A stretch of 64,000 nucleotides of DNA, from the NCBI GenBank assembly GCA_963699545.1, contig CAVOUE010000005.1, positions 471,354-535,353 on the forward strand, read 5' to 3'. This DNA is from Nitrospirota bacterium. Its GTDB lineage: Bacteria; Nitrospirota; Thermodesulfovibrionia; Thermodesulfovibrionales; UBA9159. Of the stretch, positions 7,895 to 35,618 are shown piece by piece. Numbering within the stretch: the stretch's first letter is position 1; the number at the start of each line of letters is the position of its first letter. The notes beneath the pieces are model-generated. The model had not been told where the DNA came from. It worked only from the letters and a program-made list of their open reading frames with translations, and did no database searches. Position numbers and translations under genes: made by a program.

Positions 7895-9487
7895 TTATTT
7901 GGCTTTTGCTTTCCTTTGATTGGCAGGCTGGACCCGCACCCGTCTGCCGTGAAGCATCATATCGTTGAGGGAGCTGATGACCCTGTCAGCAAGGTTGGCG
8001 GGCACTTCCACGAAACTGAAGGCATCAAAGATAGCGATATTGCCGATTTTCTTGCCCGGGATATTGGTTCCTTCCGAGATGGACCTTACAAGGTCGCCCA
8101 CTTTTATTTTGTCCTTTTTGCCGATGGTAAGAAAGAGCCTTACCGTTCCCGTACCGGAAGAGAGGCCTGCCCTCCCCCGTTCTTCGATATCAGCCACTTC
8201 CAGGTCCCCCGCTATGAGACTGAGGGCAGCTGCAGCAACGTCCTGAGGTGAATACCGTTGGAAAAGTTCACCGGCCAGGGAGAGGTGACCGCTATGGTTC
8301 CCGGCTGCGATTATGCCCTCGATGTCGTCAATGAGTTCCTTTTCCCTCGCCTTCTTCACCTCTTCTTTTGTGGGTAACTTTGCCTTGCTTATGACGGTCT
8401 TTGCAGACCTCTCGATCAGCCTCAGCTGGTTGTATTCCCGGGGGGTCACAAAGGTTATGGCGATGCCTGATTTCCCTGCCCTCCCGGTCCTGCCTATCCT
8501 GTGGATATAACCGTCGGGGTTCTGGGGAATGCTGTAGTTGATAACGTGCGTCACGTCGGGGATATCCAGCCCCCTTGCTGCCACATCGGTAGCCACAAGG
8601 ATATCGATCTCCCCGCTCTTGAACTTATCCATCATCTCATCCCTGAAAGACTGGGTGAAATCGCCGTGTATGGCCCCTGCGCTATAGCCCATCTGCTGGA
8701 GCTTTCCTGATACGTCATCCACATCTCTTTTTGTATGGCAAAAGACAAGTGTCAACGAGGGGTCTTCCACATCCAGCAGTCTCGTCAACGCATTGATCTT
8801 GTCTTCCTCCCTCACCTCATAGAACACCTGCTTGATCTTCGCAACGACCATCTTCTTGGGATCCACGAAGACCTTCTCAGGCTCATGCATATATTTACGG
8901 GAGATGCGGAGAATCTCCTCGGGCATGGTGGCGGAAAAGAGCATGGTCTGCCGCTCCTTCGGGATCTCTCCCAGTATCCTTTCCATGTCTTCAATAAAAC
9001 CCATATTCAGCATCTCGTCGGCCTCATCAAGAACGACCGTTGTTATATCCTTGAGGATAAGGGTCTTCCTCTGTATATGGTCGATCACACGTCCGGGAGT
9101 ACCCACCACCACATCAACCCCTTTTTGGAGGCCCCTGAACTGCCGCTCTATCGACTGGCCGCCGTAGACCGGCAGGGATACAACACCCTTGTTTCTGCCG
9201 ATCCTGTTCAACTCCTGAGCCACCTGGACCGCAAGCTCACGGGTCGGGGCAAGGACAATGGCAAAAGGGTTTTTCCCCTTACCCCTCCTGCCCTTCTCAA
9301 TGATCGGTATTCCGAACGCAGCGGTCTTTCCGGTCCCCGTCTGTGCCAGTCCAATAATGTCGCGCCCCTTAAGGGCATGACTGATGGCGATCTTCTGTAT
9401 CGGGGTAGGCTCTTCAAATCCCATGTCGGAAAGGGCCTTCAGCACCTCGTCCGAAAGTCCGAAGTCATAAAATTTCTTATACTCCAT
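7895..9487 (-). CDS. deaD: DEAD-box RNA helicase with DbpA RNA-binding domain
   Basis: AQTGTGKT, PTRELA, DEAD, SAT and HRIGRTGRAG motifs, plus a C-terminal DbpA-type domain. Confidence 0.93.
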   Translation of the reverse strand: MEYKKFYDFGLSDEVLKALSDMGFEEPTPIQKIAISHALKGRDIIGLAQTGTGKTAAFGIPIIEKGRRGKGKNPFAIVLAPTRELAVQVAQELNRIGRNKGVVSLPVYGGQSIERQFRGLQKGVDVVVGTPGRVIDHIQRKTLILKDITTVVLDEADEMLNMGFIEDMERILGEIPKERQTMLFSATMPEEILRISRKYMHEPEKVFVDPKKMVVAKIKQVFYEVREEDKINALTRLLDVEDPSLTLVFCHTKRDVDDVSGKLQQMGYSAGAIHGDFTQSFRDEMMDKFKSGEIDILVATDVAARGLDIPDVTHVINYSIPQNPDGYIHRIGRTGRAGKSGIAITFVTPREYNQLRLIERSAKTVISKAKLPTKEEVKKAREKELIDDIEGIIAAGNHSGHLSLAGELFQRYSPQDVAAAALSLIAGDLEVADIEERGRAGLSSGTGTVRLFLTIGKKDKIKVGDLVRSISEGTNIPGKKIGNIAIFDAFSFVEVPANLADRVISSLNDMMLHGRRVRVQPANQRKAKAK

Positions 9488-9595
9488 GCCTCTCCTGTTC
9501 TTCTTCGTGTATCATTCCGGTTTCATTGAAAATGAATATGCTGCAGATATGAGGGATGCTCACAGCGGACAATTGACGGGACCGTGCGTCCCGGC

Positions 9596-9802
9596 CTAAC
9601 TGACGGGTCTGTTCTGCCTTGCCTGTCGTGCGGACCTGGCTCTCCTCTTCCGTGCCTCCCTCTGCTTCGATTTCTCCTTGACAGAGGGTTTCTCATAGAA
9701 ACGCCTTTTCTTGAGCTCCTTGAGAAGGCCGTCCTTCTGGAGTTGCCGTTTGAGTAATTTTAGCGCCTTTTCGACGTCATTGCCGTTTACCCTTATCTCC
9801 AA
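9596..9802 (-). CDS. rpsU: 30S ribosomal protein S21
   Basis: EKALKLLKR...RRFYEKPS motif. Confidence 0.95.
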   Translation of the reverse strand: MEIRVNGNDVEKALKLLKRQLQKDGLLKELKKRRFYEKPSVKEKSKQREARKRRARSARQARQNRPVS

Positions 9803-10089
9803 TTACCTGGTTTCCTTCCTCCCCTGCTCTCGTTCCGGTCCTTCTGGGGCCTCGCCTCGCTCACGGTCAGGGCTCTGTCCATAAGGGTGGTTCCGTTGAG
9901 ACTGGAAATCGCTTTTTCACCCTCTTCATCGGAAGCCATCTCCACAAAACCGAACCCCTTTGAGCGGCCCGTGGCAGTGTCGGTGATTATCTTCACGGAC
10001 TGAACCTCTCCGTTCTGCGCAAAGAGCTCTTTCAGTGTCTCTTCATCTACCTTGTAGGAAAGGTTCCCCACATAGATCTTTTTCGCCAT
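9793..10089 (-). CDS. RRM RNA-binding protein
   Basis: KIYVGNL (RNP2) and RSKGFGFVEM (RNP1). Start at MAKK with GGAGGAG RBS. Confidence 0.93.
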   Translation of the reverse strand: MAKKIYVGNLSYKVDEETLKELFAQNGEVQSVKIITDTATGRSKGFGFVEMASDEEGEKAISSLNGTTLMDRALTVSEARPQKDRNESRGGRKPGNWR

Positions 10090-10134
10090 CTTCTCCTCCT
10101 TCTCGATAAAGCGCTTCATGCGCCCTATGCAAAT

Positions 10135-10170
10135 AAAAAAGGCCGCATTGTTAAAAGTTCTTGCGGCCTT
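10135..10170 (-). terminator. Terminator-like hairpin in the leader of the RRM-rpsU-deaD operon
   Basis: AAGGCCGCA/TGCGGCCTT stem plus U-tract on the minus strand, about 45 nt upstream of the RRM start. Confidence 0.6.
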
Positions 10171-10394
10171 CATCTGACAAAAACTTCCAAGCTGCTCTAC
10201 TTTGCCACAGGATAACAGGAAATGTCAAACGTTATTTTCCCCCTGCCGCAGGCAAGCGCCCTCTGCGCACCAGCTTGAGCCCTTCAAACCACAGGATGCT
10301 CCCGATGCCTCCGGCAGGACACCGCACATTATTGACTCTTAGGAATATTCCTGATAAAGTTAAAGGAAGAAAGACCTTCAGAAAGGAGAATATC

Positions 10395-10736
10395 ATGAGT
10401 GATGATACTAAAGCCATTGCCGGTGCATTCTTACTGGGAGGAATGATCGGTGCGGGCATCGCCCTCCTCTATGCTCCCAAGTCAGGCCGTGAAACGAGAA
10501 GGGATATATCCAAGGCTGCCCGACGCGTACAACGTGATGCGGTGGAGCTGGTGGAGGATACGATACAGAGCGTGGACGAATTCGTGGGCACGGTGAAGGA
10601 CCAGGCTTCGGACATCATCGAGAGGGGCGTTGAGCTTTCAGACAGTGCCAAGAAGGAAGTGATAAAATCCCTGGAGTACGGACAGAAGGTCATGGAGAAG
10701 CAGAAGAAGAGGATCATGGAGGGTCTCGGTCTTTAA
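10395..10736 (+). CDS. YtxH domain protein
   Basis: FLLGGMIGAGIALLYAPKSGRETR motif. AAGGAG RBS before the ATG at 10395. Confidence 0.9.
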   Translation: MSDDTKAIAGAFLLGGMIGAGIALLYAPKSGRETRRDISKAARRVQRDAVELVEDTIQSVDEFVGTVKDQASDIIERGVELSDSAKKEVIKSLEYGQKVMEKQKKRIMEGLGL

Positions 10737-10751
10737 ATTTGATCTGACGCG

Positions 10752-13121
10752 TTGATGATAGCGGAAAACACCCTCAATCTCCTTGAGTTTCCGAAACTCC
10801 TCCGGATAATCTCGACCTTTTCCCACTGCGATGCCTCGGGAAAAGCGGTACTTGATATCTTTCCCCTTAGTGAGCGGGAGGAGATAGAGACGAGGCTCGG
10901 TCGGATAGCCGAGATCAGGAGGATATCTCACGAGGGGAGTCCTCTTAAGCTCTCGCAATTCTCGGATGTCGCTCCCCTCCTCCGTACGATAAGGCCTGCT
11001 GGTGCTGTCCTTGAGTCAAGGGAACTTTCTGCCTTCAGGCCCTTCCTCGACATCGTGCATGACATATCCTCGCAAATGAAGGAGCAGGAAACCCTTCCCT
11101 TTCTCATGGAACTCACAAGGTACCTCACCGGCTTTCCTCATATCCTCGCCCTTCTCAAGAAGTCTATTGACAGCGAAGGCACTATCCTTGACAGCGCCTC
11201 TTTGGCCCTTTCTGAACTGAGGGGACAGGTGAGACGTCTCGCAGGGAGGATAACAAGGAAGCTGGAGGAGATGACGAGGGACGAACGGATCTCGGTCTTC
11301 CTCCAGGACAGCTTCATCAGCGAACGGTCGGGACGGTGGGTCATTCCGGTCAGGATGGACTCCAAGGGACAGGTGCCGGGCGTGGTCCACGACATCTCAC
11401 GATCAGGAGAGACCGCATTCATCGAACCCCTTGCCGTCATCAGCCTTTCCAATGAGCTGGAGAACCTCATCGCTGAGCAGAAGGCCGAGGAGATACGCAT
11501 CCTCAGGGATATCTGTTCCCAGATACGTGCCGTGGCTGATGACATGGATGTCCAGCATGGGATCCTCGTTCACCTCGATCTCCTGAACTGCATTGCGCGC
11601 TTTGCCGATGAGCTTCACATGGAGAAGCCCGAGATCAATGATGCAGGTTTTGTCCGTCTCGCGAACGGCCGCCATCCCCTTCTCATGCTCAGCTTCCGGA
11701 GGTCGGATGCCGCACAGGAAGTGGTCCCCCTTGATGTTCATCTGGGAGAGGAAACCACGGTGATGGTGATTACCGGCTCGAATGCAGGTGGGAAGACCAT
11801 CGCCATTAAGACGATCGGCCTGCTCCAGCTCATGGCCCTGTCGGGCATGCCTGTTGCTGCGGACTCTTCATCCAGCTTTCCGCTCATCCATAATCTCCTC
11901 ATCGACATCGGAGATGAACAGTCCATCGAGAATAACCTCTCCACCTTCTCGGCCCACGTATCGAATATCTCTTCGATCCTGAAGAAGGCGGATGCCGGAT
12001 CCCTCGTCCTCATCGATGAGCTCGGCACCGGCACCGATCCTGAAGAAGGGGCTGCCCTCGCCTGCGCTGTCCTGAAGGAGATACGGAGCAAAGGCGCTCT
12101 TCTCTTCGCCACCACCCATCTGACGGACATAAAGGGATTCGTGCACAGGACAGAGGGCATGATCAACGCCTCAATGGAATTCGACCGGAACACCCTCACC
12201 CCACTTTATCGGTTGCGGGTGGGAGAGCCCGGTCAGTCACACGCCCTGGAGATAGCAAGGAAATACGGCCTGCCTGACACGATCATCGACTCCGCAAAGG
12301 CGATGCTGGGGGGCATCCGGGTGGAGTTCGACAACCTGATCGCAGACCTGAATGCAAAGAGGACGCAATATGAAAATGCCCTTGGTAAACTCAGGAAACA
12401 ACAGAGGGAGTCGGACGAACAAGGCAGGGTGCTGGAACTGCGGTTGAAAGAGGCAGAGGCCCGGCAGAAGGAGCTGCTTGCAAAGGCGTACAGAGACTCT
12501 TCTGAGATAATCTCCGGGACAAAGAGGCAGATGAATGCGCTGCTGGAAGAGATCAGAAAAAAAGGCAGGGAAAAGAGCCGTGAGGTCATGAAGCGGGTCG
12601 AGGCAAAGCAGGAAGAGGTGTGCAGAAGCTCAGGGAATATGACGTCGCTGATCATGGTGCTCCTTCCCTGTCAGACCTAAAGAAAGGGGACATCGTATTT
12701 GTGAGGTCCTTCGGCTATGACGCATCCGTGATGGAAGTGGATGCGAAGCATAATCGCCTCAGAGTGAGGTCCGGGAGCGTGGAGATCGAAATTCCTGCGG
12801 CTGATATAGGATTCAGGAGGGGGAAGTCCGCCGAGACAAAGGGAGGAACGGTAACCCTCGGAGCAGGGAGATGATACGCTTTCATCCCGGCTGAACCTGG
12901 TGGGAATGAGAGTGGATGAGTCGCTTTCAAAACTGGAACCGTTCCTGAACCACGCGTCACTGGCCGGACTCTCAGAGGTCACCATCATCCACGGCTTCGG
13001 GACCGGCGTTCTTGCAAAGACGGTACGCGAGCACCTCGACAACCACCCTCTCGTAAAGCACTTCAGAAAGGGAGAGCAGTCCGAAGGCGGGGCAGGAGTG
13101 ACGGTGGCGACACTGGTGTGA
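10752..13121 (+). CDS. mutS2: Endonuclease MutS2 with Smr domain (split by two apparent frameshifts near 12620 and 12870)
   Basis: ITGSNAGGKT, DELGTGTDP, TTH, coiled coil, KOW-like segment and IIHGFGTG...GGAGVT Smr, spread over three frames. Confidence 0.9.
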
Positions 13122-20986: not shown

Positions 20987-23543
20987 ATGCAGGACCGTAT
21001 CATCATAAGGGGCGCACGGGAGCATAATCTCAAGAACATCGACGTGACCATACCCAGGGAGAAGATCACCGTGATCACAGGACCCTCAGGCTCGGGAAAA
21101 TCTTCACTTGCTATCGATACGGTCTACGCAGAAGGACAGCGGCGGTACGTGGAAAGCCTATCAGCATATGCGCGACAGTTCCTCGATCAGCTTCAGAAGC
21201 CGGACGTTGATTTCATCGAGGGTCTCTCCCCCTCTATCGCCATCAACCAGAAGACCGTTACGAGGAGTCCCCGCTCCACCCTCGGTACTATCACCGAGAT
21301 CTACGATTACCTGCGCGTCCTTTACACGAGGATAGGGAAACCGTTCTGCTATAACTGCGGCGGGCCCATATCCACCCGGGACGTCAGAACCATCATCGAG
21401 TCGGTGATGGCCATGCCCCAGGGGACCAGATTACAGGTCCTTGCCCCGATCGTGCGGGACAGGAAGGGTGAATACAGAAAAGAACTGGCGGAGATGAGGA
21501 GTGAAGGCTTTGTAAGGGCCAGGATCGACGGCACGATGATTGACCTCACCGAGGAGATAACCCTCAGGAAACAGAAACGGCACACCATTGAGATCGTGAT
21601 CGACAGGCTTATCATAAAGCACGGCATCGAAAGCAAGATAAAAAACGCCATCGACGTGGCCCTCGGCTATTCGGACACGGTCATCATTAACCTCGTGGAG
21701 GAGAAGAAGGACATTCCCTTCAGCAAGGCCATGGCGTGTCTGAACTGCGGCACAAGCTTCCCCGAGATAAACCCAAGGCTCTTTTCCTTTAACAGCAGCT
21801 ACGGCGCGTGTCCCGACTGTCACGGGCTTGGGGTCGGTGGAGTGGAGAAGGGCATCGACCCCTTCAGGACGGGATCTGACGGCGATGACCTCGACCTTTC
21901 GCCTGAAATGCTGAAGCCGTGTAAGTCCTGCGGCGGCATGAGATTGCGGAAGGCCGCTCTGAGCATACAGATACAGGGGATGAATATCGGGGAGTTTTCG
22001 AGGCTCACCGTTGAGGGGGCCTCCTCCTTCGTGAACGGACTTGTCCTGACAGAGAGGGAAAGGACCATCGCTTCCCGTGTCCTGAAGGAAGTGGCGGACA
22101 GACTCTCCTTCCTGATGAAAGTCGGCCTGGGGTATCTCACCATTGACAGGATGTCCCTCACCCTTTCGGGGGGCGAGGCGCAGAGGATCCGTCTGGCGAC
22201 CCAGATGGGTTCTTCCCTCACCGGAGTCCTCTATGTCCTTGATGAACCGAGCATCGGCCTCCACCCCCGGGACTGCACGAAGCTCCTGGAAAGCCTTTCC
22301 TCCATCAGGGATGCAGGGAATACTATCCTCGTGGTGGAGCATGACGAGGAGAACGATACGGTGGGCGGACCATGTCATCGACATAGGTCCGGGAGCAGGA
22401 GCAAGGGGCGGCTGGATCGTTGCCGAGGGCACCCCGTCGGACATACAGGACAATGGGCGTTCGGTAACGGGGAAGTACCTGAAGGGAGAACTTGCCATTC
22501 CCCTGCCGCGTGCGAGGAGGAAACCGGCGGACTTTATCCATATCGCAGGCGCCCAGGAATTTAATCTCAGGAATATCGATGTCAATATCCCGCTCGGAAC
22601 GTTCATGTGCGTGACCGGTGTCTCGGGCTCGGGAAAGAGTACGCTCATCATCGAGATACTCTACAAGGCATTGATGAAAGCCATACATAAGAGTGTTCTG
22701 ACGCCGGGGAAACACCGCGCTTTAACGGGAGCTGACAAGGTCGACAACGTCATCTGCGTGGACCAGTCTCCCCTTGGAAGGACCCCGAGGTCCAACCCCG
22801 CTACCTACGCAGGTGTTTTCACCCTCGCAAGGGAGCTCTACGCCCAGGTCCAGGAATCGAGGATCAGGGGTTTTTCTTCGTCGCGGTTCAGCTTCAATGT
22901 CCCCGGCGGCAGATGTGAGAAATGCCATGGGGGAGGACTCCTGAAAGTCGCCATGCACTTCCTCCCCGATGCATACGTCCAGTGCGATACCTGCAAAGGC
23001 CGAAGATATAACAACGAGACCCTGAATATACAATTCAAGGGCAGGGATATCTCTGAAGTCCTCAGCATGACCGTGTCAGAGGCCCTGGAATTCTTCGCTT
23101 CCATCCCTGCAATAAAGCAGAAGCTTGAGATACTGGAAGATGTGGGTCTCGGATATCTCCAGCTGGGTCAGCCTGCACCAACACTCTCCGGAGGTGAAGC
23201 CCAGAGGCTGCGCCTTTCCCGGGAACTTGCCAAAAGGGCAACAGGGAACACCCTTTATATCCTGGACGAGCCTACCACAGGTCTTCATTTCGCAGACATC
23301 CAGAGACTCCTTGATGTCCTGAACAGCCTTGTGGACAGGGGGAACACGGTCATTGTGATCGAACACAACCTGGACGTTATAAAATCCGCAGATTACCTCA
23401 TCGACCTTGGCCCTGAGGGGGGCGAGAATGGCGGACGGTTGATCGCCACCGGGACACCCGAGGATGTATCCCGCAATCCTCAGTCGCATACGGGCAAATT
23501 TCTGAGAGAGAAGCTTGCCCGGGACGTGGCGAGGGTGGCGTGA
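20987..23543 (+). CDS. uvrA: Excinuclease ABC subunit A (one extra base near 22352)
   Basis: [17 protein letters not shown], two [12 protein letters not shown] sets and Zn fingers. The halves join if GAGAACG is read as GAG ACG. Confidence 0.95.
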
Positions 23544-25852: not shown

Positions 25853-26125
25853 ATGGCAAAACAAATAGGCGCTCTCGATATAAGGAAAAGTCTTGGGTCG
25901 ATCCTCGAAGAGGTCTACTACAAGGGGGAGGAGTTCGTTATTAAGCGGGGCCGTAAGCCTATGGCCGTGCTGATACCGGTCGCCGAGTTTGACAACTTCA
26001 AGAAACAAAAGCAACAGGATATGCAGGTCTTCAAGACTATCCGGGGAAGAGCTAAGGGCATTGAATCAAAAGAAGTTGAAAGGGATGTGGAAGAGGCAGT
26101 AAGAGCGGTCCGCAAACGTGCATAG
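25853..26125 (+). CDS. Phd/YefM-type antitoxin
   Basis: LGSILEEV...EFVIKRGRKPMAVLIP; overlaps the PIN gene. Confidence 0.85.
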   Translation: MAKQIGALDIRKSLGSILEEVYYKGEEFVIKRGRKPMAVLIPVAEFDNFKKQKQQDMQVFKTIRGRAKGIESKEVERDVEEAVRAVRKRA

Positions 26126-26543
26126 GGTTGTGGTCGATACCAATGTTCTGGTGAGTGGTGCGATCCAGAAGAAGGGATTTCCTTATAAGGTTGTCAAGGC
26201 CTGGGAAGATGACGTCTTAGCTCTTGTAACTTCCGGGCCTTTAATTGATGAGGTAAGCAAAGTTTTACACTATGATAAAATCCGGGTGCGATATTCTTTA
26301 AAGGAAGAAGAGATTAAGCAAATCCTTTTGAACCTTATGCGATATTCTCTCTTTATCAGTGACCCGCCAAAATTGAATGTTATAAAAGAAGACCCTTCTG
26401 ATAATAGTATCCTGGCTGCTGCGATAGGGGGCAAGGCGGATTATATCATCTCGGGGGATTCACATCTTCTGAATTTGGGAGTTTATAAAGGAATAAGCAT
26501 TGTGACGCCAAAAGGGTTTTGTGAGATAACAGTGAAATTATGA
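26118..26543 (+). CDS. PIN-domain toxin (VapC-like)
   Basis: VVVDTNVLVS, DPSDNSIL and IISGDSHLL motifs. Confidence 0.9.
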   Translation: MHRVVVDTNVLVSGAIQKKGFPYKVVKAWEDDVLALVTSGPLIDEVSKVLHYDKIRVRYSLKEEEIKQILLNLMRYSLFISDPPKLNVIKEDPSDNSILAAAIGGKADYIISGDSHLLNLGVYKGISIVTPKGFCEITVKL

Positions 26544-27719: not shown

Positions 27720-28982
27720 TTGAGACAAAAGGGCGTAAACACTAAAGACGGAACTTTCAAAGAAAGCTTCAAGGATATTCAGTTTCGTCCCATTCATCCG
27801 TTTCCGGCTCGTATGACACCATCAATCGCATGGGACAGCCTGACGAACTGTAGTCGAAAGCCCCTGAAAGTTCTCGATCCGATGACGGGATCAGGTACAA
27901 CAGCTGTTGTCGCTAAATCCCTTGGGCACACCGTTATCGGCTTCGACACAGATCCCTTGGCGGTCTTGATAGCAAATACCTGGTGCACTGAAATTGATGG
28001 GGATAAATTATTAGAAAAAGCCTCTGAAGTATTGGACAGGGCGATAGAACGTTGCAGCCATTTACCTCTACGCGAAGCATACCCTCGACAGGCTGACGCC
28101 GAGACCCGCGCTTTCATGAGATATTGGTTCGATAGTTGTAATCGTCGGCAGCTCGCAGTATTAGCTGAGGCAATTTCACGGCTGCACGACAGAGCACTTA
28201 AGACTGCATTGTGGTGCGCCTTTTCGCGACTTATAATTACCAAGAAAATCGGCGTATCTCTTGCTATGGACATATCTCACAGTCGGCCTCATCGGGTCTA
28301 TGACAAAGCACCGATTAAGCCTTTTGACAAATTCTTAGCATCTGTTGAAACAATTTCAAGGAGATTACCGTTCACAAAGAATGGAAGCAGCTTGCCTGAC
28401 GCGAGTATTCGATTAGGGGATGCCCGTAAGCTCCCCGTTAATGATCGAAGTATAGATATTGTCATCACCTCACCTCCTTATCTTAACGCTATTGATTACC
28501 TGAGGGGACATAAGTTATCTCTGATTTGGAACGGATATTCCCTCAAAGACCTCCGGCAAATTCGATCATCAAACGTCGGTGCTGAAAACTCTCTATCGGA
28601 GAATCATCTCAAAGATTGTGTTCACCACATTCTGGCAGAGATGGGAGCGGTTGAAAGGTTACCAGCACGAATAAGAGGCATTCTAAGAAGATATGTCCAT
28701 GACATGGATTCAGTGCTCGGAGAAATAAGCCGCGTACTGAATATTCGAGGCCACGCAGTGGTAGTCATTGGTGATTCAACCATAAAGGGCACGTTCATCC
28801 AAAATTCGAAAGCACTGACTCTTCTTGGAAGACGACACGGTCTAAACCTACAGTCTATTAGACGAAGAGAATTACAGGACAATCGGCGTTATCTTCCACC
28901 ACCAACTTCAGTTGCCGCAGGTTCACAATTGCAGGGCCGAATGAGAGAGGAAGTTATAATGACTTTCAGCCTTTGTGCATAG
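27720..28982 (+). CDS. Amino-DNA methyltransferase (probably N4-cytosine; motif I precedes motif IV)
   Basis: IHPFPARM, LDPMTGSGTT (SAM-binding motif I) and VITSPPY (catalytic motif IV). Start uncertain (TTG). Confidence 0.85.
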   Translation: MRQKGVNTKDGTFKESFKDIQFRPIHPFPARMTPSIAWDSLTNCSRKPLKVLDPMTGSGTTAVVAKSLGHTVIGFDTDPLAVLIANTWCTEIDGDKLLEKASEVLDRAIERCSHLPLREAYPRQADAETRAFMRYWFDSCNRRQLAVLAEAISRLHDRALKTALWCAFSRLIITKKIGVSLAMDISHSRPHRVYDKAPIKPFDKFLASVETISRRLPFTKNGSSLPDASIRLGDARKLPVNDRSIDIVITSPPYLNAIDYLRGHKLSLIWNGYSLKDLRQIRSSNVGAENSLSENHLKDCVHHILAEMGAVERLPARIRGILRRYVHDMDSVLGEISRVLNIRGHAVVVIGDSTIKGTFIQNSKALTLLGRRHGLNLQSIRRRELQDNRRYLPPPTSVAAGSQLQGRMREEVIMTFSLCA

Positions 28983-29067: not shown

Positions 29068-29694
29068 GTGCCAACAGAAGAATGGCTTGATGAAATACAT
29101 GAACGACTCTTAGCAGACGACCCAGTTGCGCCGGCTGAACTCGCTGAAAACATCTTAGATATCCTCATAAAAAAACTTTCTGCAAGGTATTACTATCTCA
29201 ATGATCCAGCCATAGTTATTGATGCAGTCAGTGACGCCATTCTTAGCTACATCAAGAATCCAAGACAGTTTAATCCGTCAAAAAGAGGACTTTTGGGCTA
29301 TCTGCAGATGGCTGCTGAAGGTGACCTAAAAAATGCCCTCTCGAAGATAAGCCGGCGCAACAAGAAAGAATTAATAAGCGATGATGTCGAACTTACCCTA
29401 TTGGGTGGGAATATATCATTAAGAAAAGGATTTACTCATAACGATGCGATCTCCTCTGAGGATAAGCAAAACCTCAAGAAAGTGCGTGGTGCTATCAGCA
29501 CATTGTTCAAGGACACGAAAGACCTGAAGATTGCAGAAATGATTATAGAAGGAGAAAGATCAACCCCGGCTTTCGCGACAGTCCTTGGCTTGCAAGGACT
29601 GAGCATTGAAGGGCAAAAAAGAGAAGTGAAACAGCACAAAGATCGTATTAAGAAATGCCTGGAGCGTTATTTGAAAGGTAGCCATGAAAAATAA
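29068..29694 (+). CDS. ECF-like RNA polymerase sigma factor (divergent)
   Basis: Region-2-like segment (DAVSDAILSY..PRQFNPSK..LLGYLQMAA..DLKN..R) and C-terminal region-4-like HTH (FATVLGL...VKQHKDRIKKCLER); 208 aa. Confidence 0.7.
   Translation: MPTEEWLDEIHERLLADDPVAPAELAENILDILIKKLSARYYYLNDPAIVIDAVSDAILSYIKNPRQFNPSKRGLLGYLQMAAEGDLKNALSKISRRNKKELISDDVELTLLGGNISLRKGFTHNDAISSEDKQNLKKVRGAISTLFKDTKDLKIAEMIIEGERSTPAFATVLGLQGLSIEGQKREVKQHKDRIKKCLERYLKGSHEK
29385..29415 (+). promoter_or_regulatory. ECF-promoter-like motif, copy 1 (inside the sigma gene)
   Basis: TGTCGAACTTACCCTATTGGGTGGGAATATA; 27/31 identical to 30864-30894. Confidence 0.65.
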
Positions 29695-30106
29695 ATACAG
29701 CTCTGACTTGATAGAACAACTTGCTTTCCGTGCAAGTAATGACATGTTTTTTCTTGGTAATATTATTGCTGACTTCAAAGCTCTTAATAAACTCAGCGGC
29801 TTGGATATGTCTGATTTCCTTGAATGCTCTCCCGATGCTATAAAAAGACTCGCTTTATGTCGTCTGCCTGATGATCGAGACGAGCGGTTTAGGGATGACA
29901 TCAATCGTATCTCAGGTTATGTGAAATGCAATGCCGATAAACTTATTACCCTCATCCGCCAAGTGAATACTTTAAGAACCTTGCGTGGAGAAAGCGCAAA
30001 ACATGCTGCGTCAAGTTTGCTAATGGCAGCCCGTGATCGTCGCCCCGAGAAGCAGACCAGGCGTAAGCATAAGAAATCTTCAAAAGATGAAGAAGAGACC
30101 ACATGA
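29684..30106 (+). CDS. Small helical/HTH-like protein, candidate anti-sigma or repressor
   Basis: Translationally coupled between the sigma and peptidase genes. HTH-like LSGLDMSDFLECSPDAIKRLALC, then an LLMAARD motif and a basic tail. Confidence 0.6.
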   Translation: MKNKYSSDLIEQLAFRASNDMFFLGNIIADFKALNKLSGLDMSDFLECSPDAIKRLALCRLPDDRDERFRDDINRISGYVKCNADKLITLIRQVNTLRTLRGESAKHAASSLLMAARDRRPEKQTRRKHKKSSKDEEETT

Positions 30107-30861
30107 TGTTTGATAAAGAGATCGTTCGTTGTGCCGAGAAATTCTGGCGACTTGTCGGAAAGTACGAACCTTTTCCCCGCGCACTTGAGGCCCCGATATT
30201 ATGGGCACTGCCTGTTGCCATTGTGAAACTGCCGCATCTTGGTTTGAAAGAAATCCAACAGTGGCTTGTGGAGCGCAACATTGTACTGGACTTCAGGACA
30301 CCAAGTCGCGCAGTACGAGCTTGTCTCATTGCCAAAGCTGGTAAAGGAATTATTTTTCTTGATGGATGCGATACAAGTGACGAACAGCGCTTATCTTTGG
30401 CTCACGAGCTGGCACATTATTTAAAGGATTACTTAGAACCTCGCGAGAAAGCCCTTAAAACCTTCGGCGAAACAATCAATGAAGTTCTCGATGCTATCAG
30501 GCCTCCCACTCCAACAGAACGGCTGGCTGGAATTCTTAAGAGTGTGCCAATAGGAATATTTACAGATCTCATAGAAAGATCATCGGCAGGCGATATTCAC
30601 CGCATGGCTATTCTGGAAGCAGAAGATTTTGCAGATCAGCTTGCAATTGAGCTCTTGGCTCCAAATAAAGTAGTTGTTCGCCACTTGGAAGCTCAGGGGA
30701 TTGTCTGGAAAAGTGATAATGCAAATGATTTATGTTGTCATATGCTGATGGCTGTTTTTGGCCTTCCTGCCGATGTAGCAAAGGAATATAGCGATATGCT
30801 GATTATGGCTGGGAGCCAACCGAAATCATTTAGAGAATGGCTTGGGGTTCGGTCAGTATGA
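30103..30861 (+). CDS. ImmA/IrrE-family Zn metallopeptidase
   Basis: QRLSLAHELAH (HExxH) and EDFADQLAIELLAP (third-ligand helix). Confidence 0.85.
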   Translation: MMFDKEIVRCAEKFWRLVGKYEPFPRALEAPILWALPVAIVKLPHLGLKEIQQWLVERNIVLDFRTPSRAVRACLIAKAGKGIIFLDGCDTSDEQRLSLAHELAHYLKDYLEPREKALKTFGETINEVLDAIRPPTPTERLAGILKSVPIGIFTDLIERSSAGDIHRMAILEAEDFADQLAIELLAPNKVVVRHLEAQGIVWKSDNANDLCCHMLMAVFGLPADVAKEYSDMLIMAGSQPKSFREWLGVRSV

Positions 30862-30863
30862 TT

Positions 30864-30894
30864 TGTCGAACTTAGTCTATAGGGCGGGAATATA
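30864..30894 (+). promoter_or_regulatory. ECF-promoter-like motif, copy 2 (upstream of nurA-herA)
   Basis: TGTCGAACTTAGTCTATAGGGCGGGAATATA, followed by RBS TAAGGAG and the start at 30931. Confidence 0.7.
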
Positions 30895-30930
30895 ATTGCA
30901 GAGAGCAAAATTTGCTATAAGGAGAATGAG

Positions 30931-32163
30931 TTGGAAATAGAAGACAAGAGGTCAGGGCAAGAGCAGGATGCAGATGAATCAAACCTGATGCCCATTTCAG
31001 AAAGTGACTACGAGATAGCAACAGGAGAACCCCTGTCCAAAACGCTAGATCTTGATACATGGCATCCGGGTGAAGACCTTGTCGAAATGTATAACCGCCT
31101 GAGACAAGAAATTGCAGATGCAGTAAAAGATGAAAAACGATTTCAAGAACAGATTCGAGAGCAAATATTTCCAATGCTGCGCACAAGACAGGATGCGCCC
31201 CCTGGTGCAGGCGTTTATAAAGTAACTGCAGATCAGTTACAAGACGTGCATCAAAAACTACTTTTTAACGGTGGGGTTGAGGCTTGCGATGGGACGGTTG
31301 TGCCTTATGACACCTTGCCCGTTACTATAACTCAAATAGGCGTCTGTTTAGTATCTTACAGAGGTGATCAGGGATCATGGGTTCATAGAGTATTTCGGAG
31401 GGATTTGAGAACAACTGGAAAGAATCCCATAGAAGAGACACTTAATCTCCTTGACCGCCGCCATCAACGCGGGGCAGTTGATCAGCAAAGCACGCGCGAT
31501 CAGCTAAGCAGTCTTACACAGAGGGGAATCATGGCATATGCCGAGCGAGCTGTATTACTTGAAAAGTCACAGGCTGTTTGGCGAATGGGCCATGGCAATC
31601 CTACACCCTACGAGTTAGTAGCAGGTTCAGGGATGCCTGAGCTCTTAAAAGCCAGCTTGCCGCTCATGAGTCGCTTGGTTTTGGAACATAAGAAATTTGT
31701 TTATATCGCTAATAGAATTTCTGCTCGCGATTTAGTTACGATCGGGAATGCATTACCCCCACTGCATTATGCAATCGTAGATACCAATGAAAGTATGTTA
31801 AAGAAGATTCTCTTGCGTGGTCACTATAGGGGGACTGTATGGGGGCCCCTCGGCGATGCTGTTCGCGATTTTGTGGGTGAGTGCGGCTCTAAGATTATCT
31901 GTGGCCTATATCGCGCGTCAAACTTCTCGCCATGTCAGGTTTTTTACGCCCATGTTGATCATGCTCATGAAGCAGCGTTAATTGCCATCGCTGATAGTGT
32001 ACTTCAGGAACATAGAGGGTTTCCCATGCTTATTGACCTGGCTGATGGCCTTTGCAGCACACTCTTCGGACCTGACATATTTTCTGCTTCGATTCAAATG
32101 GCATATGCTGAGGCCAATGAGCCTTTCCGTTATATGGCGGAAAGAAAGACTCGCAATCGTTAA
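30931..32163 (+). CDS. NurA-like nuclease (RNase H fold), divergent
   Basis: VEACDGT (cf. NurA a-DGS) and C-terminal HRGFPMLIDLAD (cf. GYP-L--AH/D); directly upstream of HerA. Confidence 0.65.
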   Translation: MEIEDKRSGQEQDADESNLMPISESDYEIATGEPLSKTLDLDTWHPGEDLVEMYNRLRQEIADAVKDEKRFQEQIREQIFPMLRTRQDAPPGAGVYKVTADQLQDVHQKLLFNGGVEACDGTVVPYDTLPVTITQIGVCLVSYRGDQGSWVHRVFRRDLRTTGKNPIEETLNLLDRRHQRGAVDQQSTRDQLSSLTQRGIMAYAERAVLLEKSQAVWRMGHGNPTPYELVAGSGMPELLKASLPLMSRLVLEHKKFVYIANRISARDLVTIGNALPPLHYAIVDTNESMLKKILLRGHYRGTVWGPLGDAVRDFVGECGSKIICGLYRASNFSPCQVFYAHVDHAHEAALIAIADSVLQEHRGFPMLIDLADGLCSTLFGPDIFSASIQMAYAEANEPFRYMAERKTRNR

Positions 32164-32177
32164 GGAGGTATAACCAC

Positions 32178-33992
32178 ATGGAGAATAGAGATGGAATTCT
32201 GAACACACCGGAGGAAGCTTTTAAAGCAATTGATGAGGACAGTGAGCGGGCAGGAGGACCATGGACACCTCCCGCAGACTTCGATGGCAGTATTGGCAGG
32301 ACAATGTTTGATACTCCATCCAGCAAGGACGGAACCGTAACCGTTCTTATGCCTAATGAGAATATTGATGCTCTCCCCAGTCAGGCCTTAGTAAGAATAA
32401 AGAGTGAAAACCGCATCTATCTCGGAGCTGTGATAGAAGGACCTTTTGCCGAACCGGATGGACTTCGAGCTGATGCTACGCCAATGGTTATTTCAATAGT
32501 AAAGGGCGGTTTGCTTATACCGAAATACCATGGAAGAGTCCAGGTTGAAATCATAGGTGAGAAATTAGAAGGTGGTGCAATTGTTCCACCACGTCGTAGG
32601 CCAAAGCCTAATAGCCCTGTATTTCCTCTTGATGCTGCTGAAACAGCTGAGGTTCTTCGTATAGACGGGAACATGAGACTCGGCCTTGCAGATGGTTTTG
32701 ATGATCTCGCTCTAAATATTCAGTCGGACAAGAAAAGTGTCTTTCCACGGCATTTGGGAATTCTGGGAACTACTGGTGGCGGCAAATCGACAACGGTCTC
32801 CGGATTAGTTGATAAGGCTCAAAGACGGGGAATGTCAGTCATTCTCATAGACACGGAGGGAGAATATTCCACCATAAATGAGCCAACAACCAACAAAGAT
32901 ATGATCGAGGCATTGTTACGTCAAAAACTAGAGCCTGCAAGCGTAGAAAATACACATGTTCATCATTTGGTTGGTCGCGAAACTGCAAATCCTCAACACC
33001 CGAGGGTATCTCCTTTTTCGTTGCGTTTTAGTGAACTATCTCCTTATTCTGTTAAAGAAATTCTTGCAATTGAGGAAGAAGCGCAGGAGCGACGTTTTCT
33101 TAAGGCGTATGATATAACGAAAGCTGCATTAGAAAAATTCAAAATATGGCCTCGAAATAAAGAAGAGCAAACAATGCTTGTTGAACTTGACGAGCTTGAG
33201 ACAGGATATCCGATGATGACCTTAACACATTTATACGATGTAATTAGACAGATTTCCGCAATGATTGGGGATGAGGATGATCCTTATCTTGTCACGCCTA
33301 TTTTTAATCAAAATCGTGACGAATTAAAAAAAATCATAAAGAGCATGAAACCCGAGGCTCATAAATTTAGTTGGTGGTCGTTGCAAGGCAAATTGGGAAA
33401 GATTTATCGGTTAAAGATTTTTGATACACCTCAAGTTCCATCATTAGACTATGAGGCAATGCTCCAACCAGGTCGAGTCTCGATCTTGGATCTCAGCGAT
33501 ACAGATTCTCCACAAGTGAATAATCTAGTTATTGCTCAACTTCTCCGTGGAGTTCAAAGTCAACAAGAGGAAAACTATAAAAAGGCAGTGGCAGAAAATC
33601 GTCAACCGACGCCAACTGTAATTTTTATCGAAGAAGCCCATGAATTTCTCTCAGTGCAGCGCATTAATAAGATGCAAATGTTATTTCAGCAGGTCGCTCG
33701 TATAGCTCGCCGTGGCCGGAAACGCTGGCTTGGTCTTGTATTCGTGACACAGTTACCACAACACCTGCCTGATGAGGTTTTAGGACTCATAAATAACTGG
33801 ATACTTCACAAGATCAGTGACACTGCTGTGATTACACGACTTAAGAAATCGATTGGTGGCATTAATGAAGGGCTTTGGCGGCAGTTGCCGTCACTTGCTC
33901 CAGGACAGGCAGTCGTATCTTTTACGACGCAGGCTCGACCTCTCTTGGTGACTATAGATCCAACACCATGCCAACTTCTCATGGTGGAGTAA
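32178..33992 (+). CDS. HerA/FtsK-family ATPase (DUF87) with N-terminal HAS-barrel-like domain
   Basis: HLGILGTTGGGKS (Walker A), IDTEGEY, FIEEAH (Walker B), ARRGRK (Arg finger) and VTQLP. Confidence 0.92.
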   Translation: MENRDGILNTPEEAFKAIDEDSERAGGPWTPPADFDGSIGRTMFDTPSSKDGTVTVLMPNENIDALPSQALVRIKSENRIYLGAVIEGPFAEPDGLRADATPMVISIVKGGLLIPKYHGRVQVEIIGEKLEGGAIVPPRRRPKPNSPVFPLDAAETAEVLRIDGNMRLGLADGFDDLALNIQSDKKSVFPRHLGILGTTGGGKSTTVSGLVDKAQRRGMSVILIDTEGEYSTINEPTTNKDMIEALLRQKLEPASVENTHVHHLVGRETANPQHPRVSPFSLRFSELSPYSVKEILAIEEEAQERRFLKAYDITKAALEKFKIWPRNKEEQTMLVELDELETGYPMMTLTHLYDVIRQISAMIGDEDDPYLVTPIFNQNRDELKKIIKSMKPEAHKFSWWSLQGKLGKIYRLKIFDTPQVPSLDYEAMLQPGRVSILDLSDTDSPQVNNLVIAQLLRGVQSQQEENYKKAVAENRQPTPTVIFIEEAHEFLSVQRINKMQMLFQQVARIARRGRKRWLGLVFVTQLPQHLPDEVLGLINNWILHKISDTAVITRLKKSIGGINEGLWRQLPSLAPGQAVVSFTTQARPLLVTIDPTPCQLLMVE

Positions 33993-34003: not shown

Positions 34004-34459
34004 ATGATGGATGCAAATAGACAAATACTTTATACAATTGGTTTTACTGGAAAAAGCGCTGAGGAGTTTTTCTCGCTCTTGAAAAAAGCCGGGGTCAAGA
34101 TTCTACTGGATATCAGGCTCAACAATGTCTCTCAGCTTGCCGGTTTTACTAAGGGGAAAGACCTATCTTACTTTGTTCGGGCGATACTGGACGGCCAGTA
34201 TTATCACATGACCGACCTTGCACCGACGAAAGAACTACTGAAAAAATATCAGGCAGATAAGGACTGGCAGAGTTATGAAAAAGAGTTTCTGTCTCTCTTG
34301 GAAAAGCGAAATGCAGAGGCTAAGATTAAACCTGAACTCCTCAAAGGGCCTACGGTTCTGCTCTGCAGTGAAAAGACGGCCGAAAAATGCCACCGCCGGC
34401 TTACCGCCGAATATTTGCAGAAAAAAATGTTGGCAGATTACACAATAGAGCACCTGTAG
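34004..34459 (+). CDS. DUF488 family protein
   Basis: LYTIGF, LLDIRL, SQLAGF, LAPT and LLCSE...CHRRL motifs. Confidence 0.88.
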   Translation: MMDANRQILYTIGFTGKSAEEFFSLLKKAGVKILLDIRLNNVSQLAGFTKGKDLSYFVRAILDGQYYHMTDLAPTKELLKKYQADKDWQSYEKEFLSLLEKRNAEAKIKPELLKGPTVLLCSEKTAEKCHRRLTAEYLQKKMLADYTIEHL

Positions 34460-34464
34460 GGACT

Positions 34465-35190
34465 ATGCTTAAAAAGACACTCATAATTACCGACGTTACC
34501 AAAATGAGCGACGATAATGTTTGCATCGCCGGATATGACGACACTTTGACATGCATACGGCCCGTGCTGTCCAGAGGGCAGCTTAGGAAAAAGAATCTCT
34601 TTAAGGACGGTGAACTTATCATCTTCCCCGGTGCAAAGGTTGCGTTTATTCTCAGCTCTGGAATATCTCAGCCGCCTCATGTTGAGGATATCATTTTCGA
34701 AGAAACCTCTATTGCAAGCATGAGAAGGGTATCAGTGAGAGAATGGAAGGAAATCTTAACACGGACTGCCACACAAAACGTTGGTGAACTCTTCAGTTAT
34801 ATTGAGGATCGCTGCGTGCCTCCTGGATCACCGGGGCCTTCGATCGGCACAATTCTGCCGGCTGAGATACCGACTCTCAGCTGTGATTATTACAAAGATC
34901 CTCCGCGCCCAAGAATGAGATTTGTTGATCAAGGTGGTATCATAAAGAACAATGTCCCGATAACCGACCTTGCATTTCGTAATATGTTTGATTTCTATCT
35001 GGCGAAGTATAAAGGCGACTGCGAAAAAACCGTAAAGCTTTTAAACAATAAATTGGCGGACCATGATATATATCTTCGTCTCGGCCTGTCACGTTCCTTT
35101 CGAGGCTGTTGCTGGCTTCAAGTAAACGGAATCCATACATTTCCTGATCTTTATGACAGAGATTATTGTGATTGGATACAGTTAGATTAG
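34465..35190 (+). CDS. Dual-OB-fold-like protein
   Basis: IITDVTKM...VCIAG...IRPV, PPHVED, ITDL and YLRLGLSRSF..CWLQVNGI. Start set at the ATG at 34465. Confidence 0.7.
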   Translation: MLKKTLIITDVTKMSDDNVCIAGYDDTLTCIRPVLSRGQLRKKNLFKDGELIIFPGAKVAFILSSGISQPPHVEDIIFEETSIASMRRVSVREWKEILTRTATQNVGELFSYIEDRCVPPGSPGPSIGTILPAEIPTLSCDYYKDPPRPRMRFVDQGGIIKNNVPITDLAFRNMFDFYLAKYKGDCEKTVKLLNNKLADHDIYLRLGLSRSFRGCCWLQVNGIHTFPDLYDRDYCDWIQLD

Positions 35191-35618
35191 AATAGATTTT
35201 GCTGCCGTTCAACAAGAAGCGGGTAGTCTTTGTCTCTGGTCTCTACTTCAGCTTCCTTAACCGGCAAGGGACGTTCACCTTCATTAATGACATTGACCCC
35301 GACTTTTTCACCCAATTTGATGAGAAAGTCTGCAAGCAGATAACGATGGCAGTGGTCATCAGCCCGGCAGTAACAAAGAAGTGTTAAAACGCCTTTTTCG
35401 AGGATATCGTGCCATGCCTTTTGATTGCGCTTATAGCTTTGAAGCATCAATTCACGGTAACGCTGCGAGTAGGTATCCCAACTTATTTCGCCTGCTTTCC
35501 ACGCCTGCACGATATTCCAGGTAGGTGCAAAATTAATATCTCCACTTTTCACCGTGACATCATAGGCATCTTCGCCTTTATATTTCCCGATTTGGGCTGT
35601 ATAAAGATGCAGTTCCAT
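35187..35618 (-). CDS. Second, divergent DUF488-like protein
   Basis: FAPTW..W..Y..RY..LM and TLLCYC....CHRYLL share the DUF488 AP/C..CHR signature. Confidence 0.7.
   Translation of the reverse strand: MELHLYTAQIGKYKGEDAYDVTVKSGDINFAPTWNIVQAWKAGEISWDTYSQRYRELMLQSYKRNQKAWHDILEKGVLTLLCYCRADDHCHRYLLADFLIKLGEKVGVNVINEGERPLPVKEAEVETRDKDYPLLVERQQNLF

Follow-up and report, generated by a model that had tools for sequence, protein, structure and literature searches.

Sigma factors that read a promoter within their own coding region, and peptidases that gate immune regulators, are both known from described systems. In Corynebacterium glutamicum, the SigH-dependent promoter PrshA lies near the 3′ end of sigH and drives only rshA, encoding a redox-sensing anti-sigma factor; it was proposed to act in shut-off and reported to be unlike the arrangements in S. 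coelicolor and M. tuberculosis (PMC3489674). CASP (Csx29/Csx30/CASP-sigma; PMC10028731) and CalpL/CalpT/CalpS unite a protease, an anti-sigma factor and an extracytoplasmic function (ECF)-like sigma factor in a defense locus. CapP/CapH, IrrE/DdrO and ImmA/ImmR place an HExxH...E peptidase beside a small XRE-like protein, with an immune-type operon downstream. Lau et al. noted, without taking it further, that 24 CBASS capH-capP systems adjoin a predicted sigma70-family factor (10.1101/2022.04.27.489752), and later reviews of these regulators, in their accessible text, list repressor-based families only (PMC13373217). Here we analyzed a 64,000-nucleotide stretch of a Nitrospirota bacterium assembly (GenBank GCA_963699545.1, contig CAVOUE010000005.1, positions 471,354 to 535,353 of the forward strand; hereafter the window). 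It holds a six-gene cassette in which a predicted promoter occurs twice, once inside the gene of a divergent ECF-like sigma factor (P1) and once before a NurA-like gene and a HerA-family ATPase gene (P2).

As with sigH-rshA, the predicted site lies within the sigma coding region, would be read by that sigma factor and would drive a downstream inhibitor, here a candidate. It differs in sitting in the linker between sigma2 and sigma4, in being kept across phyla, in shaping the protein sequence and in that it would also drive a peptidase gene. In CASP, sigma motifs precede defense genes including cas genes, as they do in four homologues of this cassette (L016, L026, L037 and L166; L numbers denote homologous loci throughout). 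Whereas the CASP and Calp proteases are of the CHAT or Lon-SAVED type and are triggered by type III CRISPR, the peptidase here is an M78 zinc enzyme, the effectors are NurA-like and HerA proteins plus a methylase, and the anti-sigma role is putative. CASP-sigma is the closest working analogue. In the small XRE-like protein, as in CapH and DdrO, a plausible scissile bond carries a conserved Arg, but CapP/CapH-type pairs act by de-repression at an operator, whereas this locus has a dedicated predicted sigma promoter and no operator was found; relative to CapP, moreover, the GAF domain is missing and the single-stranded DNA (ssDNA)-binding Arg is replaced. As in archaeal and bacterial NurA-HerA and anti-phage HerA pairs, the NurA-like gene adjoins herA, yet Pfam does not detect the NurA-like protein, whose active-site pattern is altered, and HerA scores far under anti-phage cut-offs. 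Regulation of NurA-HerA by a private sigma factor was not described in the literature searched. The accessible text of PMC8195603, PMC10853773 and PMC6868357 does not describe the cassette, nor did the literature searched yield a paper on it, although supplements and subscription papers may hold one. Each part has a precedent (PrshA, CASP-sigma, CapP/CapH), and for the combined system we found no description.

The two copies of the motif are 31-mers at 29385-29415 and 30864-30894, spaced 1,479 nt apart and identical at 27/31 positions. All four mismatches (positions 12, 13, 18 and 22) fall in the spacer, as the original prediction had reported. The repeat pattern occurs twice in the window and in none of 100 shuffles. 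A whole-assembly scan for further copies, proposed with that prediction, found no other near-exact copy in the 3.04-Mb assembly; the 19 fixed bases, with fewer than two mismatches, gave two sites only. Copy 1 lies inside the 208-aa open reading frame (ORF) at 29068-29694 and does encode VELTLLGGNI in the sigma2-sigma4 linker, a segment that AlphaFold models as disordered. Copy 2 begins 2 nt past the stop of a 252-aa ORF, the peptidase gene, and 67 nt ahead of a 410-aa ORF, the NurA-like gene. It had been said to occupy most of the gap before the ribosome-binding site of nurA; its place in that gap is right, but it takes up about half: peptidase stop (30861) and NurA-like start (30931) are separated by 69 nt, of which the copy covers 31.

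Close identity over the whole 31-mer is partly a lineage accident, because the spacers of cognate copies in 37 homologous pairs were no more alike than random pairs (similarity 0.249 versus 0.248 shuffled). The -10 regions of cognate copies were alike (0.74 versus 0.63, 0/2,000 shuffles, kin not being independent). When best matches of 30 nt were sought across the sigma genes without prior bias, the motif column rose only slightly above the rest (mean 19.0 versus ~18.5), because the spacers are unconserved, and a bipartite matrix was used instead. An apparent concordance of spacer length between the copies (Fisher p 0.002) was discounted, the internal 17-nt class amounting to about one clade.

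We scored homologous loci with a matrix built from 86 internal copies at a threshold of 14. The 108 loci fetched gave 109 sequences with the window; 60 non-redundant loci were kept (sigma identity <90%, linker covered, at least 200 nt past the peptidase stop) and 49/109 were excluded. At the protein-anchored Val107, the DNA reads TGTCG(A/C)(A/G)nTT, followed by GGAA 13-14 nt beyond TT (93 distinct sequences). The paired motif, whose presence in homologous sigma loci had been put forward as a check, is there: it occurs in the sigma linker in 55/60 loci, just past the peptidase in 51/60 and at both places in 48/60, across many phyla, with 0/60 in each of four control windows. When the matrix was frozen and applied to held-out loci (38 new loci minus 12 that were duplicates or lacked the small gene, leaving 26), it found the internal copy in 20/26, the post-peptidase copy in 12/25, both in 11/25 and none in the controls. 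A copy upstream of sigma was present in only 5/55 loci. Two points temper these counts: the internal 55/60 is partly circular because the matrix was trained on first-set internal copies, although the post-peptidase count is not, and 13/25 held-out loci lack a P2 above threshold. P2 is therefore not as widespread as P1. It has been relocated in some loci, before herA in L164 and before cas genes in L037 and L166; in others the matrix scan did not find it.

Some exceptions to the layout form clades in the trees we built (a quick tree and FastTree). A well-supported clade of L140, L141, L144 and L148 has no internal copy, and the VEL..GN residues are missing from its sigma factors; three of its members carry a clear copy in the gap between methylase and sigma. 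Because the clade that lacks the internal copy also lacks these residues, the linker peptide appears to follow the promoter rather than the reverse. The L157-L160 clade likewise has no intragenic promoter and a copy in the methylase-sigma gap; its sigma4 helix is changed, and cas4/cas1 lie downstream in three loci. In a Bacteroidota clade, the methylase gene holds one more copy within its 3′ end (L021 at 7792, L023 at 407, L080 at 2211, L088 at 1525, L092 at 914, L094 at 7790) and the internal copy is weaker (AGTCGAG), a layout that would mix positive and negative feedback.

Judged by codon and frame usage, the linker motif is under selection as DNA. The Val107 codon is GTC in 54/54 loci, compared with 18/59 for Val187 and 9/29 for another conserved valine. 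In 45 loci GGAA is read in one frame, under GN, RN, GK, WN and RK; 15 loci keep it in a shifted frame, under AE, TE, PE, IE, RE, GE, TV and AV. We also considered whether VEL..GN is conserved for protein function or P1 serves to make a truncated sigma4 fragment, both of which we regard as highly improbable. V107 is invariant among the 60 close homologues, as a protein function would have it, but synonymous fixation together with the frame changes excludes protein-level conservation as the cause. A fragment would fit the position of P1, 231-297 nt ahead of the sigma stop in 54/55 loci, which leaves sigma4 within the transcript; against it, in-frame restarts are not conserved: even the most used start-codon column is shared by 23/55 loci, with a ribosome-binding site before any one column in at most 3.

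The motif is best placed in the register TGTCGAA-N16/17-GGAATA with a purine at +1, a predicted assignment numbered after Table S1 of PMC7776599. In the window, P1 (29385..29413, + strand) comprises TGTCGAA at 29385-29391 (-36..-30), a CTT tract, a 16-nt spacer and GGAATA at 29408-29413 (-13..-8), and P2 (30864..30892, + strand) has TGTCGAA at 30864-30870 and GGAATA at 30887-30892. The pan-ECF consensus of Todor et al. (PMC7776599) is TGTAACC (-36..-30) and CGTCTAA (-13..-7), and TGT, G-12, T-9 and A-8 agree with it at 16-nt spacing. The predicted +1 is a purine in 53/55 internal and 48/51 external copies, and +2 and +3 are purine-rich too; in the window it falls at 29421 and 30900, in agreement with the start sites of about 29420 and 30900 anticipated originally. 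The earlier choice of GAACTT as the -35 element gives way to TGTCGAA. A GAACTT register needs AA at -13/-12, disfavored by Asn84 (preference 0.009), so CTT is placed at -29..-27; it would also put C at -35 and leave the invariant GTCG unexplained, and Lys188 of the sigma factor is the sole point in its favor. The motif is bipartite and non-palindromic and always lies on the sense strand at the cassette positions. Scans with generic Sigma70 promoter and terminator models stayed at chance level. The proposal that the sigma ORF contains its cognate ECF-type promoter, with a second before nurA-herA, is thus supported by the conserved pair.

The presumed reader is encoded at 29068..29694 (+). This 208-aa protein matches Sigma70_r2 at E 6e-4, below the cut-off, and weak matches to the same family occur in 33/60 homologues. 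It consists of sigma2 (about 1-102), a disordered linker of ~30 residues (about 103-133) and a putative sigma4 (about 130-205), with no sigma1.1 or sigma3; the AlphaFold confidence score pLDDT is <50 at residues 103-106 and 108-133. The predicted fold is closest to SigW (Z 11.8, root-mean-square deviation (rmsd) 2.9, 94 aligned), region 2 of sigmaE scores Z 10.4, and full-length structure matches cover both domains. No Pfam region-4 match was found for sigma4, and its model (133-207) aligns with SigR region 4 at Z 6.0 and rmsd 2.8. PDB sequence-profile searches with the sigma, small-protein and NurA-like profiles returned nothing useful, and for ECF group assignment the one supplementary file consulted from PMC7826278 (Casas-Pastor 2021 groups) held nothing relevant.

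Very probably, this unclassified ECF-like sigma factor reads the motif as its own cognate promoter. Through a canonical ECF sigma factor of the same genome and solved sigmaE/AlgU chains, Asn89 was mapped to the Asn84 equivalent, and Asp192, Arg193 and Lys188 to the equivalents of Phe175, Arg176 and Arg171. Asp192, at the position that reads -32, goes with G-32 in 144/146 copies and would accept a hydrogen bond from the template cytosine. In the clade with Tyr or Asn at 192, A-32 occurs in 3/3 scored copies and two upstream copies have C-32; Phe175 in sigmaE likewise goes with A-32. Asn89 goes with G-13 in 140/147 copies, and in L038, the only locus with Asp89, both copies carry C-13 (2/2). This shift is in the direction measured by mutagenesis for Asp84, which prefers CG (0.62) to GG (0.05; PMC7776599). 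In L096 and L098, where the region 2.4 helix is remodeled, both copies have T-11. Such covariation is suggestive rather than proof of the sigma factor as reader. Several observations pull the other way. The sigma2 residues were mapped with low confidence (hhalign P 0.027), those of sigma4 by inference from end ranges; the covariation reduces to about two independent events, one locus and one three-locus clade; and at P2, L076 and L082 have GGTA (T-11) although their sigma2 helix is unchanged. A Lys in place of Arg171 favors C-31 (0.98; PMC7776599), so Lys188 predicts C-31, but A stands there in about five of six copies. L160 also has Asp at 89; its contig opens with a site that, by eye, carries C-13.

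The Lys188/-31 mismatch is what speaks for a different reader, the motif being either an operator of the small helix-turn-helix (HTH)-like protein or the site of another, global sigma factor. We consider this very improbable, given a bipartite, sense-strand motif with ECF spacing and a purine at +1, base changes that track sigma residues, and the scarcity of the motif elsewhere: other matches in the source genome are at background, and the exact pattern has 0-1 copies in each of five other genomes. At canonical spacing, 3 matches in the source genome score at least 22, two of which are the cassette copies, versus 0-2 at wrong spacings, which gives no support to a genome-wide regulon. With the sigma factor as the favored reader, the regulon in the source genome looks local. 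The best promoter-like match outside the cassette, on contig C5 at 146277 (minus strand), scores 23.6, within the background range; the ORF ~115 nt downstream of it encodes 322 aa with a CxxxCxxC motif.

Directly after the sigma gene comes a gene for a small helical protein of 140 aa (29684..30106, +), a candidate anti-sigma factor and peptidase substrate. Its start overlaps or lies at most 35 nt from the sigma stop in the 55 loci measured, and anti-sigma genes commonly overlap the stop of their sigma gene. No Pfam family matches it. Fold comparison returned XRE domains including CapH (Z 4.0), DdrO and P22 c2, with Z up to 4.0 for XRE and up to 4.4 for anything; the protein looks like a degenerate XRE domain, a weak assignment from the model. 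Its would-be recognition helix is variable, has a net charge of 0 and carries Glu or Asp at position 51 in 50/73 homologues. After the folded part follows LxAARD (30017..30037, +), with L conserved in 71, A in 71, A in 72, R in 71 and D in 68 of 73. Scissile bonds in related substrates are Phe82/Arg83 (CapP), Leu106/Arg107 (IrrE) and Phe95/Met96 (ImmA) (10.1101/2022.04.27.489752; PMC6868357; PMC12828697). By analogy, Ala116/Arg117 is a candidate cleavage site and no more, because CapP and IrrE cut before Arg but ImmA before Met.

The next gene encodes an IrrE/ImmA/CapP-family (M78) zinc peptidase (30103..30861, +; Peptidase_M78 1.3e-5, over the cut-off; PADLOC capP 1.5e-6), also matched by the PDB profile search. 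H101, E102, H105 and E174, the HExxH motif and the Glu that is the third ligand, are present in 56/56 homologues. CapP has a C-terminal GAF domain and an ssDNA-binding Arg (10.64898/2026.05.16.725639). Here, only 78 residues follow the third ligand, compared with 160 in CapP, leaving no room for a GAF domain, and Glu stands in 51/56 at the position of CapP Arg90, seven residues before the first His. ImmA is also without GAF (PMC6868357). With no GAF domain and Arg90 replaced by Glu, ssDNA sensing by the peptidase is unsupported.

From these parts we propose the following switch. An upstream, sigma-independent promoter would supply methylase, sigma factor, small protein and peptidase, and the small XRE-like protein would keep the sigma factor inactive. 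On a signal, the peptidase would cut the small protein at LxAA/RD and free the sigma factor, which would fire P2 to express nurA-herA, along with the third copy that precedes cas genes where a locus has one. Free sigma factor would also fire P1, making more inhibitor and peptidase but no more sigma; the response would therefore be sustained during the signal and shut off afterwards. Taken together, this peptidase-gated anti-sigma switch is somewhat favored by the sequence evidence, while for the whole chain from promoter to output we put the chances at even. The small protein might instead be a CapH/DdrO-like DNA-binding repressor or co-activator, with the peptidase lifting repression at a promoter that is still the sigma factor's. 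Its weak fold matches are XRE repressors (CapH, DdrO, P22 c2), and the three COG2856/XRE pairs in PMC6868357 act on repressors, as does CapP/CapH. We nevertheless regard a repressor role as unlikely and peptidase-gated anti-sigma control as the somewhat better bet, because the helix is uncharged and variable (with the acidic position 51), LxAARD is near-invariant and no operator-like palindrome lies near P2. No second conserved motif or palindrome was detected there (inverted repeats in 10/51 loci versus 9.2 shuffled; no enriched 6-mer). The overlap of the small gene with the sigma stop, usual for anti-sigma genes, likewise speaks against a repressor.

The remaining genes bear on the output. 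The cassette opens with a DNA methyltransferase of the N4/N6 type with an SPPY motif (27720..28982, +; Pfam N6_N4_Mtase 5.9e-10, PADLOC MTase_II 1.6e-24), and P2 precedes a NurA-like protein of 410 aa (30931..32163, +), whose nuclease activity is uncertain, and a HerA-family ATPase of 604 aa (32178..33992, +; Pfam DUF87 1.7e-20, HerA_C 2.7e-11, PADLOC HerA 2.9e-30). Of the names given originally, the HerA family holds, whereas nurA is a fold-level guess, 0/47 members having a Pfam match. The first ESM Atlas matches of the NurA-like protein (0.98-0.95) fall in clusters with PF09376 in 21-64% of members, and an alignment against 22 NurA proteins was collinear but non-significant (hhalign E 0.11). 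It aligned the DG(S/T) and G(Y/F)P motifs; the first catalytic Asp is kept in 40/47 and the second is apparently replaced. PDB profile searches gave no match for this protein. HerA reaches 58 bits against an NCBIfam anti-phage HerA cut-off of 800.

Downstream genes were surveyed in 41 loci through 56 proteins, of which 54 came from 79 candidates and two were added, short ORFs being excluded; cas genes directly follow herA in 10/41 loci, plus 3 more. The cas neighbors seen were cas1, cas3, cas4, cas6 and csb1/2, with no type III CRISPR genes among cassette neighbors; other neighbors included UvrD helicases, an HNH nuclease, AbiEi, AAA ATPases and WYL. Third motif copies stand before cas3 (L016, L026), type I-G csb1 (L037) and cas4 (L166); the window has none. 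The cas neighbors and the patchy distribution of the cassette point toward defense, and we consider it fairly probable that the output is anti-invader defense, in which the methylase would be made ahead of a tightly gated DNA-processing pair. Against this, the cassette matched no named defense system in a PADLOC scan. A possible but doubtful alternative is an output that resects DNA ends, for repair or for CRISPR spacer acquisition, in place of outright killing or restriction. The third copies before cas3, csb1 and cas4 agree with it, as do the apparent loss of the second NurA catalytic Asp and a Sulfolobus activator that co-induces cas adaptation genes with herA and nurA (PMC5587795). Yet 31/41 loci, the window included, have no cas gene beside herA, the coupled methylase suggests self/non-self discrimination, and the cassette is missing from 400/401 host-phylum genomes, all of which count against it. 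Other third copies just past herA (L032 at 12850, L080 at 7255, L093 at 12848, L006 at 12987 and L040 at 7469) may mark further effectors; the one in L032 precedes an 87-aa ORF without a Pfam match.

The fullest account would be a widespread immune regulon built on a CapH/DdrO-type XRE protein turned anti-sigma, in which an IrrE-type peptidase frees a private ECF sigma factor, the linker is largely a by-product of the promoter, NurA-HerA and often CRISPR-Cas are induced, and a sister clade uses positive autoregulation; we hold this composite to be evenly balanced between right and wrong. If it is true, M78 peptidases control immunity by activator release as well as by repressor destruction, and CRISPR-Cas and HerA effectors gain another inducible controller. 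For the sigma/HTH/peptidase triad, the analysis gives a predicted promoter, start sites, specificity residues and a candidate cleavage site. The linker would be a clean example of a regulatory element dictating protein sequence across phylum-level distances. Natural variants with the promoter inside or upstream of the sigma gene would allow negative and positive feedback to be compared with the same parts, and a promoter almost private to its locus could find use as an orthogonal expression part.

The six-gene order of methylase, sigma, small protein, peptidase, NurA-like and HerA is conserved: the methylase lies immediately 5′ of sigma in 34/48 loci with enough flank, and the NurA-like gene follows the peptidase in 57/60. 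One search returned 189 sigma homologues, and 2,224 cluster representatives matched at E ≤0.001; the closest named homologue, labeled Nitrospirae, has 88% identity. Distribution is patchy: the cassette occurs in 1/401 genomes of the host phylum, and samples of 401 from the phyla of L015, L031 and L013 gave 32, 5 and 2 (the last two counts include weak matches). The sigma and NurA-like proteins had no match in PLSDB plasmids, and viral contigs gave one cassette locus, L108, an IMG/VR contig with a complete cassette at 8001-13000 and the methylase downstream on the opposite strand. In L034, L035 and L151/L168, the sigma-homologous domain is fused to ~450 more residues; L151/L168 lack the small gene and the peptidase and have no scored internal motif.

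Within the window, a four-codon ORF that opens with ATG at 30926 (30926-30940) runs across the TTG start codon of the NurA-like gene and shares its ribosome-binding site. Upstream, uvrA is split into two overlapping frames (20987-23543; ORFs of 525 aa and 466 aa) by a frameshift or an assembly error, and a Phd/YefM antitoxin and PIN-domain toxin pair (25853-26543) lies 1.2 kb before the cassette. Past herA (34004-35618) follow a DUF488 gene, an ORF of 240-267 aa without a Pfam match and an opposite-strand DUF488-N3a gene, which form no conserved part of the cassette in the mapped loci.

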